Shown: one piece after another, positions 754 through 6,856 of the stretch
Numbering within the stretch: the first letter of the stretch is position 1
How the letters are laid out: every line of letters starts with the position of its first letter
From: Candidatus Wukongarchaeum yapensis
GTDB taxonomy: Archaea; Asgardarchaeota; Wukongarchaeia; Wukongarchaeales; Wukongarchaeaceae
Length of the DNA stretch: 6,856 nt
Assembly: GCA_016840425.1 (NCBI GenBank)
Contig: JAEOSI010000124.1
Coordinates: 1-6,856 of the forward strand
Reading direction: 5' to 3'
Notes under the pieces: generated by a model
The model's input: only the letters and a program-made list of their open reading frames with translations
Told to the model about the DNA's origin: nothing
Database searches by the model: none
Translations under genes and position numbers: made by a program

Positions 754-935
754 AAAAACCCCTATCCTGCCCCTTTTCGTTTTATTTAATCCTTACATCA
801 AAAAATAATCCTAATGTAAAAATGCTGAGCTTAAATTAAAACCCCATATTTCATAAAAGGAGGTGACTATTCAAACAAAAAAACACTTAACACGCGGATA
901 GACTGTTGCGCAAGGGGACTTCCCGCCGAAGAAGT

Positions 936-985
936 TAAAATAAAAAAAGGAGAGAAAAGAAGAAATAAAATAATAGCAATAAATT
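936..985 (-). terminator. Oligo-T/pyrimidine-rich archaeal-type terminator for the methyltransferase plus small-protein transcript
   Basis: Minus strand reads ...TTATTTTATTTCTTCTTTTCTCTCCTTTTTTTATTTTAA about 100-145 nt downstream of the small-gene stop at 1081. Confidence 0.45.
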
Positions 986-1080
986 AAGTCCCTTTGAGTA
1001 AATTTAACGCCACTATAGGCAAACCTGTAAGTTAGAGGATTATTCCATCAACTAACTACAAAATATTTCTAGGGGGATTA

Positions 1081-1215
1081 TTAACCCCTCTTTTTCATCA
1101 CTTTAGTGCAGTGCTCTGGCTTAAAGTCCGCTGTATACTCAGGATTTTCTCTTATCGGGAGGACGAGACCGCAAACTTCACATTCAAACTCCATCATTTT
1201 TCCTTCTTCAGACAT
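1081..1215 (-). CDS. Small (44 aa) putative metal-binding protein, CxxC-x19-HC, desulforedoxin/zinc-ribbon-like
   Basis: AGGTGA ribosome-binding site (1222-1227) followed by ATG at 1215. Translation MSEEGKMMEFECEVCGLVLPIRENPEYTADFKPEHCTKVMKKRG, TAA at 1083-1081. Starts 27 nt after the methyltransferase stop. FECEVCG...P-x-HC-xx-xM mirrors the YKCxxCG...P-x-CCGxxM pattern of desulforedoxin-type domains. Confidence 0.8.
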   Translation of the reverse strand: MSEEGKMMEFECEVCGLVLPIRENPEYTADFKPEHCTKVMKKRG

Positions 1216-1242
1216 CTTTATTCACCTATCCCATAACTTTTC

Positions 1243-2319
1243 TCATCTCTTAATGAACTTCGATATAGCTTCTGGACTATACTGGATTGTTGAGTTGACG
1301 AATTCGCACATGTGCTCTATCGGGATCTCAATGTACCAATCGCACCCAGGCATGGTGAAGTCGATACCTTGTTGTAAGAGCCTCCTAACTGCGCCATTTA
1401 CCCTTTCTGCAGGTCCTTCTTTTAGCAGTCCGAAGGCTGAAAGGTTACCGCCTATCGGATACCTGGGAATCCCTAATTCTGCACACTTCTTGTTTCTTTC
1501 TTCGTCTCCTTCCGTAGTTTTTGTTCTTTCCTCGAAGGATATCATGTTGGCACCGCATTCAATCATGTCCCCAATGATAGGCGTTGTTAATCCACAAATG
1601 TGCAACAGATTAGGCTTCTTTATCCTCTTGATCATCTCTGTTAAGTAGGGTTTTATTAACTCTCTAAAGTGTTTTGGTGACATGTTGTCAGAAGAAGTTC
1701 CTTCTTCTCTCAGCGTAATCATGTCAGCGCCAGCTTCCCTGAAAATATTGGCGATATCAATATAATAATCGATGAGAACATCCCACATTTCATGGATTTT
1801 CTCTGGGTTTGTTCTGCACCAGATTAAAACATCAGTAGTTTCACCTACATAACTGCTATAACTTGTGTAAGGACAGTTAATATAAGCGACTACGGGCACT
1901 TTACCGTAATATTTTTCATGAAGCATATTTAGCGCTTTACAGATCACCGGTATCCTCATCTGGTTCTGAGGGTCATCAGGTATTTTAAGATCCTTTGGTT
2001 CCCATTTTTCTGGCCTTGAAATACATGAAGGCCACAAAATCTTGTCCGGGTGGTAATCACAGACGGCTCCAAGAGGTTCTGCCTCAACCACTAAGTCAAA
2101 CGGCACACACATTCCCTCTAACTTGCAATCCAACCAACTAGCTTCAGCAAGCTTGGTCATCATTGCAGGGTCAAAGTGGGCTTCAGGCCACTTAACATTG
2201 TATTTTCGCATTAAGGGAATTGTAACGCTTGATAAGTGGTTTAATGACGGAATTCTGTCAATATCTTTGTGTTCTGCAAGAGCTACAAATCTTTCATAAG
2301 GATTCATTTCTTCAGCCAT
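1243..2319 (-). CDS. MtaA/CmuA-family (URO-D fold) zinc-dependent, cobamide-dependent methyltransferase, 358 aa
   Basis: ORF track protein. N-terminal MNPYERF...DRIP, PFDLVVEAEPLG, SPKHFRELIKPY, LLHICG (H240-x-C242), GNL and PGCD (C326) match the MtaA/MtbA Zn-site pattern H-x-C...C. Start re-assigned from 2367 to ATG 2319 (MAEEMNPYERF) because AGGTGA (2325-2330) sits 5 nt upstream and a TATA box lies at 2369-2376. Confidence 0.88.
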   Translation of the reverse strand: MAEEMNPYERFVALAEHKDIDRIPSLNHLSSVTIPLMRKYNVKWPEAHFDPAMMTKLAEASWLDCKLEGMCVPFDLVVEAEPLGAVCDYHPDKILWPSCISRPEKWEPKDLKIPDDPQNQMRIPVICKALNMLHEKYYGKVPVVAYINCPYTSYSSYVGETTDVLIWCRTNPEKIHEMWDVLIDYYIDIANIFREAGADMITLREEGTSSDNMSPKHFRELIKPYLTEMIKRIKKPNLLHICGLTTPIIGDMIECGANMISFEERTKTTEGDEERNKKCAELGIPRYPIGGNLSAFGLLKEGPAERVNGAVRRLLQQGIDFTMPGCDWYIEIPIEHMCEFVNSTIQYSPEAISKFIKR

Positions 2320-2368
2320 GAATTTCACCTTTACAACAAAATTTTTAGGTGTGGTGTCTACACCCACG

Positions 2369-2383
2369 TTTAAAAACTTTTTT
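2369..2383 (-). promoter_or_regulatory. Putative BRE/TATA promoter of the methyltransferase operon
   Basis: Minus strand reads AAAAAAG-TTTTTAAA about 50 nt upstream of ATG 2319. Confidence 0.5.
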
Positions 2384-2724
2384 GGAAAAGTGCGTATACA
2401 CGATAATATTTTATAATTAAGAATATTCTAAGATAGCTTGTCCTCATATAAAAGCGTTTTTACAACATATTTATCCCTTTTTTAAACTCTTTATAATCTA
2501 ATTTATCTACATAGATCTTAGTATAAATATCAGAGAGACTATTTAAGAATCCAAAGATTAAACCTTTCAAAAACTTTGCTTTTTCTCCCTTCATCTAATT
2601 CAGCTCAAATTATTCCTTCCCGCGCATAAACCCCTCTAAAATTCTGACGTATACGCTGCATAGCGTCCTAACCTTCTATTAAATACCATAATTTTTATAA
2701 AGTCAAAAGAATCTATTTTTAAAA

Positions 2725-2745
2725 TTGGAACCAAAATGGTTCCAA
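2725..2745. promoter_or_regulatory. Perfect 9-3-9 inverted repeat, candidate transcription-factor operator
   Basis: TTGGAACCA-AAA-TGGTTCCAA in the divergent intergenic region, about 90 bp upstream of the corrinoid-gene BRE/TATA. Confidence 0.55.
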
Positions 2746-2833
2746 AACAAAGATAGAGGTCAATTTCCCGCGCAAATCAAAACCAAAATTTTACTTCGTG
2801 CTGGATGATTGCACTTCTGTTTATGAAAATAAG

Positions 2834-2848
2834 CGAAAGTATTTTAAA
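2834..2848 (+). promoter_or_regulatory. Putative BRE/TATA promoter of the corrinoid protein gene
   Basis: CGAAAG-TATTTTAAA about 52 nt upstream of ATG 2900. Confidence 0.55.
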
Positions 2849-2899
2849 TGAAAACAAAGAGAGATTCAAAGTTTAGAAACCATGGAGGTTAGGTCTAAA

Positions 2900-3589
2900 A
2901 TGAGCAAAGAAGAATTGTTGAAAAAACTTGAACAATTAGTTATTGAGGGTGATGTAGACAACGCTCCAGCAGCAGCCGAAGAAGCTTTAGACTCCGGAGT
3001 AACACCTTGGGAATGTATCCAAGATGGTCTATCAAAAGGAATGGAAACAGTAGGACGCCTTTACGAAGAACACGAATACTTCTTACCAGAAGTTCTCCTA
3101 TCCGCTAACGCGATGTACGCTGCCTTAGACATAGTACTCCCCCAGTTGAAAGTAAGAGGTGGTGGAGAGTCCCCAGGCACTGTTGTGATCGGTGTTGTTG
3201 AAGGAGACATCCACGACATCGGGAAGAACATCGTTAAAGCCCTACTCACTGGCGCAGGATACAACGTGATCGACAAGGGAAGAAACGTCCCAGCCGAAGA
3301 ATTCTTGAAGGGAGTTAAAGAAGAAGGCGCCCAAGTAATCGCTATGTCAACCCTTATGACACCCACTCTAGAATCAATGCGTGAAGTAGAAGACAAGCTG
3401 AAAAAAGAAGGCCTAAAAGGAAAAACTAGAACCATTATCGGCGGTGCAGCTACCTCACAAACATTCGCAGGAGAAATCGGTTCTGACGACTACGGTGAAG
3501 ACGCTCAACAAGCAGTAGATAAAGTAAAAGCCCTAATAGCAGATATCACAGCCGCTGTAGCAGCCGTAGGAGAAAGGGTAGAAAAGTAA
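2900..3589 (+). CDS. Methyltransferase cognate corrinoid protein (MtaC/MttC/MtbC-like), 229 aa
   Basis: N-terminal cap domain (GLSKGMETVGRLYEEHEYFLPEVLLSANAM) plus B12-binding domain with GDIHDIGKNIV (D-x-H-x-x-G), MSTLMT and IIGGA. ATG 2900 is preferred over 2882 because GGAGGT (2884-2889) precedes it. Confidence 0.93.
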   Translation: MSKEELLKKLEQLVIEGDVDNAPAAAEEALDSGVTPWECIQDGLSKGMETVGRLYEEHEYFLPEVLLSANAMYAALDIVLPQLKVRGGGESPGTVVIGVVEGDIHDIGKNIVKALLTGAGYNVIDKGRNVPAEEFLKGVKEEGAQVIAMSTLMTPTLESMREVEDKLKKEGLKGKTRTIIGGAATSQTFAGEIGSDDYGEDAQQAVDKVKALIADITAAVAAVGERVEK

Positions 3590-3610
3590 AAACGTAGTAA
3601 AAACCAATGC

Positions 3611-3630
3611 CCCTTTTTTCCTTACTTTTT
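3611..3630 (+). terminator. Oligo-T terminator after the corrinoid protein gene
   Basis: CCCTTTTTTCCTTACTTTTT begins about 20 nt after the stop codon. Confidence 0.5.
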
Positions 3631-3653
3631 ATAATAAATTAAATAAAAAAATT

Positions 3654-3693
3654 AGAAAAGCCTTTTTTAAGGTCACGTAACTTACCTACGTGA
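3654..3693 (+). promoter_or_regulatory. Putative BRE/TATA promoter of the activator gene with an adjacent 7-7-7 palindromic operator
   Basis: AGAAAAG-CC-TTTTTTAA (3654-3670) followed 2 nt later by TCACGTA-ACTTACC-TACGTGA (3673-3693). Confidence 0.5.
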
Positions 3694-3752
3694 ACATTTA
3701 ACCTAAAAACAAGAAGTTAAGAATTTGTAAAAATTAGAAAGAGGAAATCAAA

Positions 3753-5822
3753 ATGACAGGACAAATTGAAGTCGTTTTTCAACCCTCAGGTAGACGCCGA
3801 ATGGCAGACCCTGGAGAAAACGTGCTTGATGTAGCCAGATCTATTGGTGTAGACCTCGCATCAGTTTGCGGAGGCAAAGGTACTTGTGGTAAATGTAGAG
3901 TTGCAGTGATTTCAGGCGGTGAAAAACTAAACGAGCTAACAGAATATGAGCTTAAGAAAATGACTGATAGAGACATCAAGAAAGACTACAGGTTCGCTTG
4001 TCAGATTTTAGTGCCTACAGATGCTCCGCTTGACGCTAAGTCTGGTCACAAACGATTGGTTCTAAAAATCCCAGAAGAAAGCAAAACCGGTGAACAAAGA
4101 CTTCAGACCGAAGGAAGAGATGTACCCATAGAGATAAACCCCATAGTCAAAAAATACTATTTCGAAGTGAAGAAAGCAACCCTTCACGACCTTGTTTCAG
4201 ACGAACTTAGGATGCTAGCCGAGCTCGAAAAGAAATACGGTCTTAAAGATTTAGTGCTCACAATTGAGGCCGCTTACCAACTACCCGCAGCTATAAGAGG
4301 AGCAAAGACAGAGGACGACATGTGGACAGCTACTGCGGTAGTATGGAATGACCAAGAAATCATAGCTATAGAACCCGGAGACACAAAGGACCAGTTCTAC
4401 GGCTTTGCGGTAGACATAGGAAGTACAAAAGTAGCAGGATTCTTGCTAGACCTCAACACAGGCGAAGTGAAGTCACTTGCAGCTATAATGAACCCGCAGA
4501 TCCCCTACGGCGAAGATATCATGAGCCGTATAACCTTCACCATCCAGCGGGGTGAAGAAGCCCAAGAAATCCTCCACAAAGTCATCGTAGAAGGAGTAAA
4601 CGAAATCTGCCAAAAAGCTTGCGACCAGGCAGGGATAAACCCTGAATTGATCTACGACTGGAGCCTGGTAGGTAACACTGCTATGAGCCACCTCTTCCTG
4701 AAAGTATTAGCCAAATATGTGGCTTTAGCCCCCTACCCACCAGCAGTCAGCCGCGGTATCAACGTCAGATTAAAGGACTTCGGCATGCTCGGACACCCTA
4801 ATGCAAAAGCCTATTTTTCCTCCTGTATTGGAGGCTTCGTAGGAGCAGACAACGTGGCTGTAGTTTTAGCCTCAGATCTTGGGGTATCAGACGAACTAAT
4901 ACTTGCCCTTGACATCGGAACTAACACAGAGATAGACCTCGGCTCAAAAGAACTTGGAGCTATGTGCTGTTCAACTGCTAGTGGTCCAGCTTTTGAAGGT
5001 ATGCAGATTGCCCACGGTATGAGGGCAGCAACAGGAGCTATCGAAAGGATTAGCGTAGATCCCTTCACACAGGAAGTAGATTATAAAACCATAGGTGATG
5101 CTCCTCCTGTAGGAATTTGTGGTTCAGCCCTTGTTGAAGCACCCTCAGAATTTCTCAAAGCTGGCATCATGAACTTCAAAGGCAAAATAGATAAAGAATT
5201 ACTTGGAAAACACAAACACGTAAAACAAGGCGAAAAAGGACTCGAATTCATTATCGCGTTTAAAGAAGAAGCTGGTATAGACACGGACATATGGATCTCG
5301 CAAAATGACATAAGACAGTTACAACTTGCTAAAGCAGCTATGCACACAGGTTGCAGTGTGCTTTTGCACAGGATGAACGTTACAGAAGAAGATCTTGACG
5401 CCATTGTTGTTGCTGGAGCTTTCGGGAACTTTATCCAGCCTGAAGCTGCAAGAACTGTCGGAATGTACCCAGAAACACCACTAGAAAAGATAAGGCTTGT
5501 AGGTAACGCTGCAGGAACCGGTGCAAGAATGAACCTTGTATCAAGAGAAAGCAGACAAAGATCAGAAAACATTCCAGTCATAGTTAAATACCACGAACTG
5601 GCAATTGACCCCATGTTCTTAACTGAATACGCAAACAGCATGCTGTTCCCATACTCTGACCTAAGCAGATATCCAGAAACTTCCGAATTATTGCTCAAAG
5701 CCGGTAGAATAACCGAAGACCAATACAACAAATTCATGGAAGAAAGAGAAAAACGAGCCCTTGTCTTCGACTCCAGAGTCGACACACAAATTGCCTACGA
5801 AAAAGGTGAAAAGAAAGATTAA
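3753..5822 (+). CDS. RACo-type ATP-dependent reductive activator of corrinoid proteins (N-terminal [2Fe-2S] ferredoxin plus ASKHA ATPase), 689 aa
   Basis: CGGKGTCGKCRV...RFACQ [2Fe-2S] motif; AVDIGSTKV, YGEDIMSRI, GGFVGAD, DIGTNTEI, ASGPAFEG, GICGS, DIRQLQLAKAA, AGAFG and GNAAGTGA are the conserved RACo/AcsV-family blocks. GAGG at 3741-3744 precedes the ATG. Confidence 0.93.
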   Translation: MTGQIEVVFQPSGRRRMADPGENVLDVARSIGVDLASVCGGKGTCGKCRVAVISGGEKLNELTEYELKKMTDRDIKKDYRFACQILVPTDAPLDAKSGHKRLVLKIPEESKTGEQRLQTEGRDVPIEINPIVKKYYFEVKKATLHDLVSDELRMLAELEKKYGLKDLVLTIEAAYQLPAAIRGAKTEDDMWTATAVVWNDQEIIAIEPGDTKDQFYGFAVDIGSTKVAGFLLDLNTGEVKSLAAIMNPQIPYGEDIMSRITFTIQRGEEAQEILHKVIVEGVNEICQKACDQAGINPELIYDWSLVGNTAMSHLFLKVLAKYVALAPYPPAVSRGINVRLKDFGMLGHPNAKAYFSSCIGGFVGADNVAVVLASDLGVSDELILALDIGTNTEIDLGSKELGAMCCSTASGPAFEGMQIAHGMRAATGAIERISVDPFTQEVDYKTIGDAPPVGICGSALVEAPSEFLKAGIMNFKGKIDKELLGKHKHVKQGEKGLEFIIAFKEEAGIDTDIWISQNDIRQLQLAKAAMHTGCSVLLHRMNVTEEDLDAIVVAGAFGNFIQPEAARTVGMYPETPLEKIRLVGNAAGTGARMNLVSRESRQRSENIPVIVKYHELAIDPMFLTEYANSMLFPYSDLSRYPETSELLLKAGRITEDQYNKFMEEREKRALVFDSRVDTQIAYEKGEKKD

Positions 5823-5839
5823 GAAAGAACCAAAACACC

Positions 5840-5861
5840 TTTTTTCTTTTATTTTTTCTTT
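5840..5861 (+). terminator. Oligo-T terminator after the activator gene
   Basis: TTTTTTCTTTTATTTTTTCTTT starts 18 nt after the stop codon. Confidence 0.55.
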
Positions 5862-6056
5862 GTCTTTGGCTATTGTTAAAGGCCTGCCTATTTTTATAGA
5901 GCCTAATCTATTTTCCTAAACTGTTTTTTTCTCTTCATAAGATGTTTATTTCTTTTGCAATTCATTTATATATTATTAAGAACTTACCAAATTTTTAAAA
6001 ATGATTTTTCTTTTCCTTTTTTAGTTTTGTTTCATAGTCTTGCGTGGGGAGAAAAA

Positions 6057-6856
6057 ATGGAGGAAAAGATCTGGATAGCGGCTGGAGAACCGCGAAGGGA
6101 AATGCTTACAGGCGAGAAAAATTTCGATGCCTTCCTTAAGATAATTAGCGGTGCTTGCACCATCTTTTATGTAGAAAATCAAACATATAATGACCCCCTT
6201 AGTTTAGTTGCTGCTTGGTTAACAAACTGTGCTGAAGACGAATATGGCATAATTATAAATACGTATGATGATCCTGTAAGATTAGCAGAAAACTTTCAAA
6301 ATCTTAATCCAGAAATTGTTGAAAAAACTATAATGCTTTCAAAGGAGAACAGGTTTTTCTGGATCGACATGTTCACCTACAGGGGCTTTAATGACGTAGA
6401 GGCGGAAAAATTATGGGTTGATTATAAGTTAGCTCTTGAACCTTTGGACGTTAATTTTTCAAACTATTTTAGCGTGAAGAAGCCTTCAGATTTAGGGTCA
6501 ATTCACGGTTTGAACCCGATCCTCAACCATATTCTTGAGCGAACTGGTGGAGAGAAAAAGGCAAGAATAGCTGTAGCTTATGGTGATGATTTAGTAGATC
6601 TTACAGGGGAAGATGAGTTCTTAAAATTTTATAGGAGACAGATAAACACCATTATTCACAAGTTTAATAACGCTGCCATCTTTATTTTCAGCTATATGAG
6701 CCATTCTCAGAAGTTTCATGCCACCCTTGAAAGGTTAAGTGATTCAGTTATTAGGTGGGGATGGGGTCGGTTAGGAAGACGCTCTCAGGAAGAAAAATTT
6801 TTAGAGATTTTAAAAAGCCCCATACCCGATGTTTACCTTGGAAAAGTTCGTTACAA
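6057..6856 (+). CDS. KaiC/RAD55-like RecA-superfamily protein with degenerate Walker motifs; runs off the right edge (at least 266 aa)
   Basis: GGGGAG RBS then ATG 6057; frame open to the edge: MEEKIWIAAGEPRREMLTGEKNFDAFLKIISGACTIFYVENQTYNDPLSLVAAWL...YGIIINTYDDPVRL...FFWIDMFT...RIAVAYGDDL...HATLERLSDSVIRW...KFLEILKSPIP. The LTG-xxx-D start, IINTYDDP, WIDMFT, LERLSDSVI and LEILKS blocks line up with the archaeal KaiC-like pattern. Family call is by eye. Confidence 0.65.
   Translation, partial: MEEKIWIAAGEPRREMLTGEKNFDAFLKIISGACTIFYVENQTYNDPLSLVAAWLTNCAEDEYGIIINTYDDPVRLAENFQNLNPEIVEKTIMLSKENRFFWIDMFTYRGFNDVEAEKLWVDYKLALEPLDVNFSNYFSVKKPSDLGSIHGLNPILNHILERTGGEKKARIAVAYGDDLVDLTGEDEFLKFYRRQINTIIHKFNNAAIFIFSYMSHSQKFHATLERLSDSVIRWGWGRLGRRSQEEKFLEILKSPIPDVYLGKVRY

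Follow-up and report, generated by a model that had tools for sequence, protein, structure and literature searches.

The corrinoid methyltransferases MtaA and MtbA of the Methanosarcinales (structure 4AY7) are zinc enzymes of the uroporphyrinogen decarboxylase (URO-D) superfamily that cooperate with a separate corrinoid protein. In MtsA/MtsB and MtpA/MtpC of Methanosarcina, one MtaA-like zinc enzyme is encoded beside a dedicated corrinoid protein, and the thioether/thiol chemistry is reversible. The MtoABCD system of Methermicoccus shengliensis is arranged as a funnel, in which several paralogous substrate methyltransferases converge on one corrinoid protein and one MtrH-type enzyme, with a RACo-type activase (PMC8630106). 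Type 1 mlp clusters, for which a sulfur or selenium role was proposed, combine a His-Cys-Cys enzyme with a corrinoid protein and a RACE-type activase, in hosts that are not methylotrophic methanogens and with no folate methyltransferase in the cluster (Kountz and Balskus, PMC10418091). Here we describe a locus of the Asgard archaeon Candidatus Wukongarchaeum yapensis that resembles these systems in the respects just named, its own substrate being predicted to be a sulfur compound. The locus lies on a contig of 6856 bp (C121), which was analyzed in its entirety and is called the window below; the genome (G000) comprises 2.16 Mb in 277 contigs and is 92% complete. MtaA-like genes in archaea that have no methyl-coenzyme M reductase (MCR) are routinely labelled mtaA or mtbA, which raises the question of what they methylate without coenzyme M (CoM). 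We conclude that the corrinoid methyl-transfer module in the window is real and conserved, and that its central enzyme belongs to an uncharacterised MtaA-like clade. The genes for the corrinoid protein and RACo are transcribed divergently from that of the methyltransferase, and together they form the core:

1243-2319, minus strand: MtaA-fold (URO-D superfamily) corrinoid methyltransferase of the type called MT_c below, 358 aa (Pfam URO-D, NCBIfam, Protein Data Bank match, AlphaFold2 model, trees)
2900-3589, plus strand: cognate corrinoid protein with a helix-bundle cap and a Rossmann B12 domain (Pfam, TIGR02370, DIHDIG motif)
3753-5822, plus strand: RACo-type reductive activase (four Pfam domains)

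The families of the open reading frames (ORFs) in the window were assigned by Pfam and NCBIfam scans. These bear out the composition that an earlier note had read from the sequence, namely, a URO-D methyltransferase, a corrinoid protein and a RACo, with no match among the window ORFs to MtaB, MttB, MtmB, MtbB, MtrH or pterin-binding families. An Rfam scan of the window gave no match and thus no riboswitch. The methyltransferase ORF as first called spans 1243-2367, its likely start being the ATG at 2319 with a GGTGA ribosome-binding site; that of the corrinoid protein may begin at 2882, with a likely start at the ATG at 2900. The same six genes are found in the same order, at 84-88% amino acid identity, at a locus (L008) of a same-genus Hodarchaeota genome (G004), and positions 935-5882 of the window are covered by a single 4948-nt contig from a public marine-sediment run. 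Given this synteny and this independent contig, the module is not an assembly artefact. Near-identical DNA was found in marine sediment, marsh and mangrove metagenomes (13 studies). Contigs of one RNA-library run (X20) cover parts of the corrinoid protein, RACo, radical SAM and right-flank genes and none of them the methyltransferase; since these are contig data and DNA carry-over is possible, we draw no conclusion on expression from them.

The methyltransferase matches Pfam URO-D (PF01208) with 189 bits (1.3e-55). Its best NCBIfam matches, PRK06252 (237.6 versus a cut-off of 244) and TIGR01463 (MtaA/CmuA; 204.8 versus 235.4), fall just short of their cut-offs, and it reaches neither the MtaA equivalog (211 versus a cut-off of 400) nor the MtbA equivalog (127 versus 600). 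On these two models, scores of 471-531 and 629, respectively, are obtained with the true MtaA and MtbA proteins of a Methanosarcina genome. The sole solved relative in a Protein Data Bank sequence search is the MtaA of Methanosarcina mazei (4AY7; 6e-41, ~28% identity). In the alignment, its HICG, EE and PGC motifs fall on H240/C242, E263/E264 and C326 in the window enzyme, whose predicted zinc ligands are H240, C242, E263 and C326 (His-x-Cys...Glu...Cys). The AlphaFold2 model (pLDDT 93.9) likewise has 4AY7 as its top Foldseek match (TM 0.87/0.93), with uroporphyrinogen decarboxylases at ~0.79. Close relatives are few: a word-indexed search of 5.8 billion proteins returned the methyltransferase itself and one relative at 82% (P0002), and HMMER on 1.84 billion representatives returned the 82% relative, two proteins at 41-42% and all others at 36% or less. 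URO-D-family S-methyltransferases keep the His-Cys-Cys zinc ligands, which mark sulfur or selenium substrates, whereas O-demethylases replace one or both Cys (2023 preprint, PMC10418091). The predicted zinc site of the window enzyme thus suggests sulfur compounds as substrates.

We placed the methyltransferase in trees whose MtaA and MtbA references were labelled by the NCBIfam equivalog scores of the paralogues of a Methanosarcina genome. In an 87-row tree it falls in a 35-row clade (SH-aLRT 97) without any Methanosarcina paralogue, the neighbouring clade being made up of MtaA, MtbA and the MtaA-like enzymes of sampled clostridial clusters. In a 40-row tree it falls in a 15-row clade with support 100/100, and in both trees it stands apart from the sampled clostridial Mlp-like sequences. 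The approximately unbiased (AU) test on the 40-row set rejects a clade with MtaA/MtbA (p 0.000135, delta lnL 164), the group having been named after the tree was seen. Judged by its sequence, the enzyme is neither MtaA nor MtbA and belongs to a separate clade of which no member is characterised, and its position outside MtaA/MtbA agrees with the reading of the earlier note. The fused corrinoid-methyltransferase proteins of the Methanosarcina genome branch far off, and a verified MtsA is not part of the tree. The mto operon of M. shengliensis was found through its RACo, a protein that begins with MSVRVTFE and so matches the published MtoD primer (PMC8630106). A phmmer search at E<1e-5 gave no match of the methyltransferase to either MtoB1 or MtoB2 of this species, which are 417-420 aa long, have neither the HxCG nor the GC motif and form a distant outgroup in the tree. 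We rejected an MtoB/CdmB-type identity on account of the missing phmmer match, the distant outgroup position and the retained zinc Cys and His.

The orthologous clusters encode counterparts of the window's corrinoid protein (55-59% identity) and RACo (~50% identity) together with two or three URO-D paralogues. One of these, MT_a, is sister to true MtaA; another, MT_b, has the signature N-x-C-G...PGC, in which the zinc His is changed to Asn; and MT_c, with H-x-C-G...PGC, is of the window type. An MtrH-family gene lies within the fetched locus in 7 of the 16 loci (307 bits in Pfam for L019), and the minimal clusters, L019 and L010, contain MT_c, corrinoid protein, RACo and MtrH. At two Bathyarchaeia loci (L009:3144-5691 and L015:7462-10151), genes similar to CdhD and CdhE, the corrinoid iron-sulfur protein of acetyl-CoA synthase, lie inside the cluster or directly after it.

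The window genome has counterparts of these partners on other contigs. An MT_b on C170 is 41% identical to the window methyltransferase and shows the N-V-C-G variant, an MT_a lies on C117, and a single MtrH, on C68, is 50%, 44% and 42% identical to the cluster-linked MtrH of L022, L014 and L019, respectively, and 34% identical to MtoA. At a distance of 2.6 kb from this MtrH, C68:1311-2045 encodes an accessory protein (fam11) homologous (36%, 7.5e-41) to a protein that adjoins MT_c and a short B12-binding protein in L020 (8091-8855) and L021 (9046-9822), with MtrH in L020 only. The fam11 protein is ~250 aa long, with a GxGxxG start, a Cys-rich C-terminal half and no Pfam match. The module is therefore split across the genome, with its core in the window and its methyltransferase partners on C170, C117 and C68. 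Because all partners are present on these contigs, the "only one methyltransferase" of the earlier note describes the locus and not the system: the claim stands for the window and fails for the genome, where there are paralogues on C170 and C117 and an MtrH on C68. The same MtrH is a candidate for the second methyltransferase that the note had supposed to be encoded elsewhere.

The corrinoid protein matches Pfam B12-binding_2 (PF02607, 78.6 bits) and B12-binding (PF02310, 82.6 bits) above cut-off, carries the DxHxxG motif as DIHDIG and scores just under the cut-off of TIGR02370 (208.6 versus 215.3). RACo, the only full-length one in its genome, has Fer2 (an N-terminal 2Fe-2S domain), RACo_linker, RACo_middle and RACo_C_ter (an ASKHA ATPase), all above cut-off, and is 38% identical (412 bits) to MtoD of M. 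shengliensis.

The clade is patchily distributed, with loci in Bathyarchaeia, Hadarchaeota, Heimdallarchaeota, Hydrothermarchaeota, Methanomethylicia, Ca. Methylarchaceae and one deltaproteobacterium. Among 400 sampled genomes of Asgard archaea, 11 have a member at E<=1e-60; except in the window's genus and in a single Heimdall-type genome, these members are orphan Asn-variant genes and not clusters. In two other Asgard families, such an orphan gene (NICG) lies a few kilobases from genes resembling beta-glucosidases of glycoside hydrolase family 1 (GH1) at four of five loci. This hints at a connection of the orphan paralogue with glycoside or aglycone metabolism. Loci with the orphan NICG gene are:

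L076:9364-13758
L077:1641-5114
L078:1-3661
L079:5907-12728

Several differences separate the locus from the described systems. Unlike MtaA/MtbA, the window enzyme belongs to another clade, scores below the NCBIfam cut-offs, sits with its own corrinoid protein and RACo, and occurs in a host in which no MCR or CoM synthesis genes were found. Compared with MtsA/MtsB and MtpA/MtpC, no sampled Methanosarcina paralogue enters its clade (the true MtsA and MtpA were not placed), its acceptor cannot be assumed to be CoM, and its likely second enzyme is MtrH. It departs from MtoABCD in that the enzyme is not MtoB-like (no sequence match, other length, zinc Cys kept) and MtrH is unlinked. From type 1 mlp clusters it differs in clade (by comparison with the sampled clostridial Mlp-like sequences), in having one methyltransferase rather than Mlp2 plus Mlp3, in that no SelD was found, and in having relatives whose clusters are linked to MtrH and CdhD/CdhE.

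The host background is also relevant to the acceptor. Neither MCR alpha nor ComA was found in the window genome or in the four other clade-bearing genomes, and sulfopyruvate decarboxylase, cysteate synthase and methanogenesis marker 16 were not found in the 92%-complete window genome. Present in the same genome are an MtaB divided between two contig ends, an MtaC/MtaA-like pair, three cap-type corrinoid proteins and an MttB-family gene without internal stop. The same-genus genome G004 carries on contig C3 (L080:8231-11901) a cassette of cysteate synthase (TIGR03844, 564 bits), a fused sulfopyruvate decarboxylase (ComDE; alpha 193.6 versus a cut-off of 148, beta 217.9 versus 221.5) and marker 16 (502 bits), which we take to be the Methanosarcina-type coenzyme M gene set. 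In the window genome, the genes that flank this cassette are directly adjacent (C98:4302/4310), and the cassette is missing. Cysteate synthase is present in 17 of the 400 sampled Asgard genomes, with a distribution that does not track the clade. The earlier note had weighed its reading against an ordinary methylotrophy locus, with an enzyme of the MtaA/MtbA clade and a standard CoM pathway in the genome; what we found is a separate clade and no MCR or CoM genes. The standard substrate-side methyltransferase (MT1) that the note also named for such a locus does exist in the genome, since MtaB and an MttB-family gene are encoded elsewhere in it. That the acceptor would be something other than CoM if the host lacks CoM and MCR agrees with the window genome and is called into question by the CoM cassette of G004. 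Indeed, because a genome of the same genus with the same module carries this cassette, a CoM acceptor has to be reckoned with for the lineage. On C95:1674-3458, the window genome encodes a second corrinoid protein paired with a URO-D enzyme that is very divergent (HLCG), and a small ORF resembling a zinc ribbon comes after them; C95:5558-5785 is a URO-D fragment with an in-frame TGA.

We propose, with a rough probability of 0.45, that the window enzyme is a methyl-sulfur methyltransferase that loads the corrinoid protein, and that MtrH passes the methyl group to tetrahydromethanopterin (H4MPT). In this scheme RACo, using ATP and a low-potential electron, would reduce Co(II) to Co(I). The zinc of the methyltransferase would bind the sulfur of a small methyl-thio compound, most plausibly a compound like dimethyl sulfide (DMS) or methylmercaptopropionate, and Co(I) would take the methyl group, as with MtsA and MtpA in methanogens. 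The MtrH homologue on C68 would then move it from CH3-Co(III) to H4MPT, feeding the Wood-Ljungdahl pathway. From the composition of the minimal clusters, a single cobalamin would undergo two half-reactions, from sulfur-methyl to cobalt and from cobalt to H4MPT. The donor direction is favoured because it is substrate-side enzymes that a corrinoid protein and RACo normally accompany, because a single corrinoid protein and a single MtrH serve several paralogues, as in Mto, because two clusters are embedded with genes for corrinoid subunits of acetyl-CoA synthase, and because the habitat is sulfidic coastal sediment.

A number of observations weigh against this proposal. MtaA and MtbA, the characterised enzymes closest to that of the window, serve the acceptor side by methylating a thiol, and the clade itself has no biochemically characterised member. 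Methyl transfer from a thioether to H4MPT ranges, for DMS, from about neutral to unfavourable, and with methanethiol it is clearly unfavourable, so that a soluble route from donor to pterin would be strained. The sister species represented by G004 probably makes coenzyme M, to judge from its gene content. In the window genome MtrH is unlinked to the module, and CdhC and Mch were not found, while both are present in G004, G003 and G005; this absence may be an assembly gap at 92% completeness. As for the phylogeny, the methyltransferase sits on a long branch, the trees do not settle whether it goes with the His-type or the Asn-type subgroup, and they left out Methanosarcina barkeri MtsA, MtpA and CmuA, for which there were no reference sequences.

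Because the chemistry is reversible, the same parts could run backwards, methylating a thiol. In such an acceptor-side role (MT2), which we regard as unlikely, the enzyme would methylate a thiol from CH3-Co(III) on the corrinoid protein, which would receive its methyl group through MtrH from CH3-H4MPT, through the Asn-variant paralogue, or from methanol or MttB-type systems; organisms that make coenzyme M, such as the sister species, would use it as the acceptor, and others another small thiol or sulfide. Thiol methylation from the pterin is downhill, by about -30 kJ/mol for the Mtr reaction, and the role would be that of MtaA and MtbA, the closest characterised relatives, which are thiol methylases with the same zinc site. 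The cysteate synthase, fused ComDE and marker 16 of G004 are in keeping with it, as are the minimal clusters L019 and L010, which hold exactly the two half-reaction enzymes. However, the window genome lacks the CoM cassette at the syntenic junction and elsewhere in its assembly, methyl-CoM would have no known fate in the five genomes tested, in none of which MCR was found, and many paralogues per corrinoid protein resemble many donors rather than many acceptors. A thiol acceptor of another kind is homocysteine, and we give a somewhat lower chance again to a split, MetH-like methionine synthase dependent on H4MPT, which would make methionine from CH3-H4MPT and homocysteine with MtrH as the pterin module, the corrinoid protein as the B12 module, the zinc methyltransferase as the homocysteine module and RACo for reactivation. 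MetE (PF01717) and MetH/BHMT (PF02574) were not found in G000, G004, G002, G705 and G706, and the same five genomes carry MT_c and S-adenosylhomocysteine (AdoHcy) hydrolase. One of them, G705, the genome of L021, is a 5.1-Mb deltaproteobacterium in which an MT_c-type enzyme lies beside a short B12-binding protein. The window genome has only the three cap-type corrinoid proteins and therefore no MetH, and the clusters are found in very different habitats. MetE shares the MtaA-like H-x-C...E...C zinc site, and MetE chains are among the weaker Foldseek matches to the AlphaFold2 model, consistent with distantly related folds. Yet G707, G708 and G709 have both MetE and MT_c, MetE accompanies the Asn-variant paralogue alone in the Asgard family f16, and most Asgard families are without both MetE and the clade, so that the complementarity across the 400 Asgard genomes is not clean; moreover, two or three paralogues per cluster exceed the need. 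If this explanation were true, a split MetH analogue would supply the missing methionine synthase of those archaea, and of at least one deltaproteobacterium, in which AdoHcy hydrolase is accompanied by neither MetE nor MetH.

Other methyl donors appear improbable. An MT1 for an O-, N- or halide-bound methyl group, like MtoB, OdmB, CdmB or CmuA, would explain why the layout of corrinoid protein, 2Fe-2S RACo and unlinked MtrH resembles Mto, and the Asn-variant paralogues of other Asgard families that adjoin GH1 glycosidase-like genes would fit such a donor. CmuA-type enzymes have also been reported to keep the zinc motif. The methyltransferase nevertheless has no phmmer match to MtoB1 or MtoB2 at E<1e-5, and the intact zinc site argues in the same direction: CdmB, an MtoB-like chloromethane enzyme, is zinc-free (PMC13222342), and O-demethylases replace Cys ligands, whereas the window enzyme keeps both Cys and the His. 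The methoxyaromatic and methyl-halide donors that the earlier note had listed are thus disfavoured, by the lack of MtoB similarity and by the intact His-Cys-Cys site. Least probable of all, in our estimate, is the function that has been put forward for type 1 mlp clusters, demethylation of methyl selenides (Sdm of Methanococcus voltae). The composition would be the same, with an MtaA-like His-Cys-Cys enzyme, a corrinoid protein, a RACE-type activase and no folate methyltransferase in the cluster, and ClMlp2 prefers selenide in vitro (PMC10418091). A selenium role is disfavoured, however, because no SelD was found at the cut-off in five genomes (G000, G004, G002, G003 and G005); in addition, the methyltransferase lies outside the clade of the sampled clostridial Mlp-like sequences, and the cluster holds a single methyltransferase, not an Mlp2 and Mlp3 pair.

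Besides the core genes, the window contains the following features:

3-677 (ORF as called 3-728), minus strand: B12-binding radical SAM enzyme, N-terminal part (weak B12-binding match)
1081-1215, minus strand: small ORF of 44 aa with a CxxC...HC pattern (ORF call, L008 synteny)
2320-2899, no strand: divergent promoter/regulatory region of 580 bp (palindrome and repeat pair)
6057-6856 (ORF as called 5955-6854), plus strand: right-flank protein that runs off the contig end (conserved in L008)

The 44-aa CxxC...HC ORF begins 27 nt downstream of the methyltransferase stop, on the same strand, and is probably co-transcribed with it. It is 83% identical and syntenic in L008, and its sole match, weak and sub-threshold, is to Desulfoferrodoxin_N. 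It was not found beside the methyltransferase in the loci of other lineages, which carry an unrelated cysteine-free protein of ~80 aa instead (e.g., L019:9144-9383).

The divergent region contains a perfect 21-bp palindrome, TTGGAACCAAAATGGTTCCAA, at 2725-2745, bracketed by two copies of TTCCCGCGCA at 2617-2626 and 2765-2774. The genome contains no second copy of the palindrome when up to 4 mismatches are allowed, and the whole intergenic region (2320-2899) is 89% identical to its L008 counterpart, compared with 84-88% for the flanking proteins. The palindrome and repeats may constitute an operator. Scans for sigma-70 and terminator consensus sequences were run but carry no information in the case of an archaeon. 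A further 44-aa ORF (MKGEKAKFLKGLIFGFLN...), at 2460-2594 on the minus strand and thus upstream of the methyltransferase in the same orientation, shares its start and initial codons with L008 and may encode a leader or a small protein. That the intergenic gaps to the left and right of the methyltransferase ORF as first called are both 514 bp long appears to be a coincidence.

The full-length L008 orthologue of the radical SAM neighbour (L008:7077-8600, 507 aa) has both Radical_SAM and B12-binding domains. The neighbour is 84% identical and syntenic there, so that it is conserved beside the module in both Hodarchaeota genomes, to which it could conceivably be linked in function. C164 encodes a paralogue at 34% identity. 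The right-flank protein has no Pfam or NCBIfam match and is 86% identical in L008. Its family has at least four copies in the window genome (including one on C133 and two on C83), 37-45% identical, and the protein is probably outside the module; it is weakly similar to an unannotated 248-aa ORF on C117. In G004, C66:1917-3224 gives an AdoHcy hydrolase match with one in-frame TAA.

Taken together, the analysis defines a distinct, uncharacterised clade of methyltransferases with a thiol-type zinc site, as well as its conserved partners: a His/Asn pair of paralogues, a corrinoid protein, RACo, MtrH and sometimes CdhD/CdhE-like genes. The module is a small set of soluble proteins and can be tested directly. 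It bears on how uncultured sediment archaea, Asgard archaea among them, connect methyl-sulfur compounds or thiols to their pool of one-carbon units, and is thus relevant to the turnover of DMS and methanethiol in coastal sediments and, possibly, to methionine synthesis.

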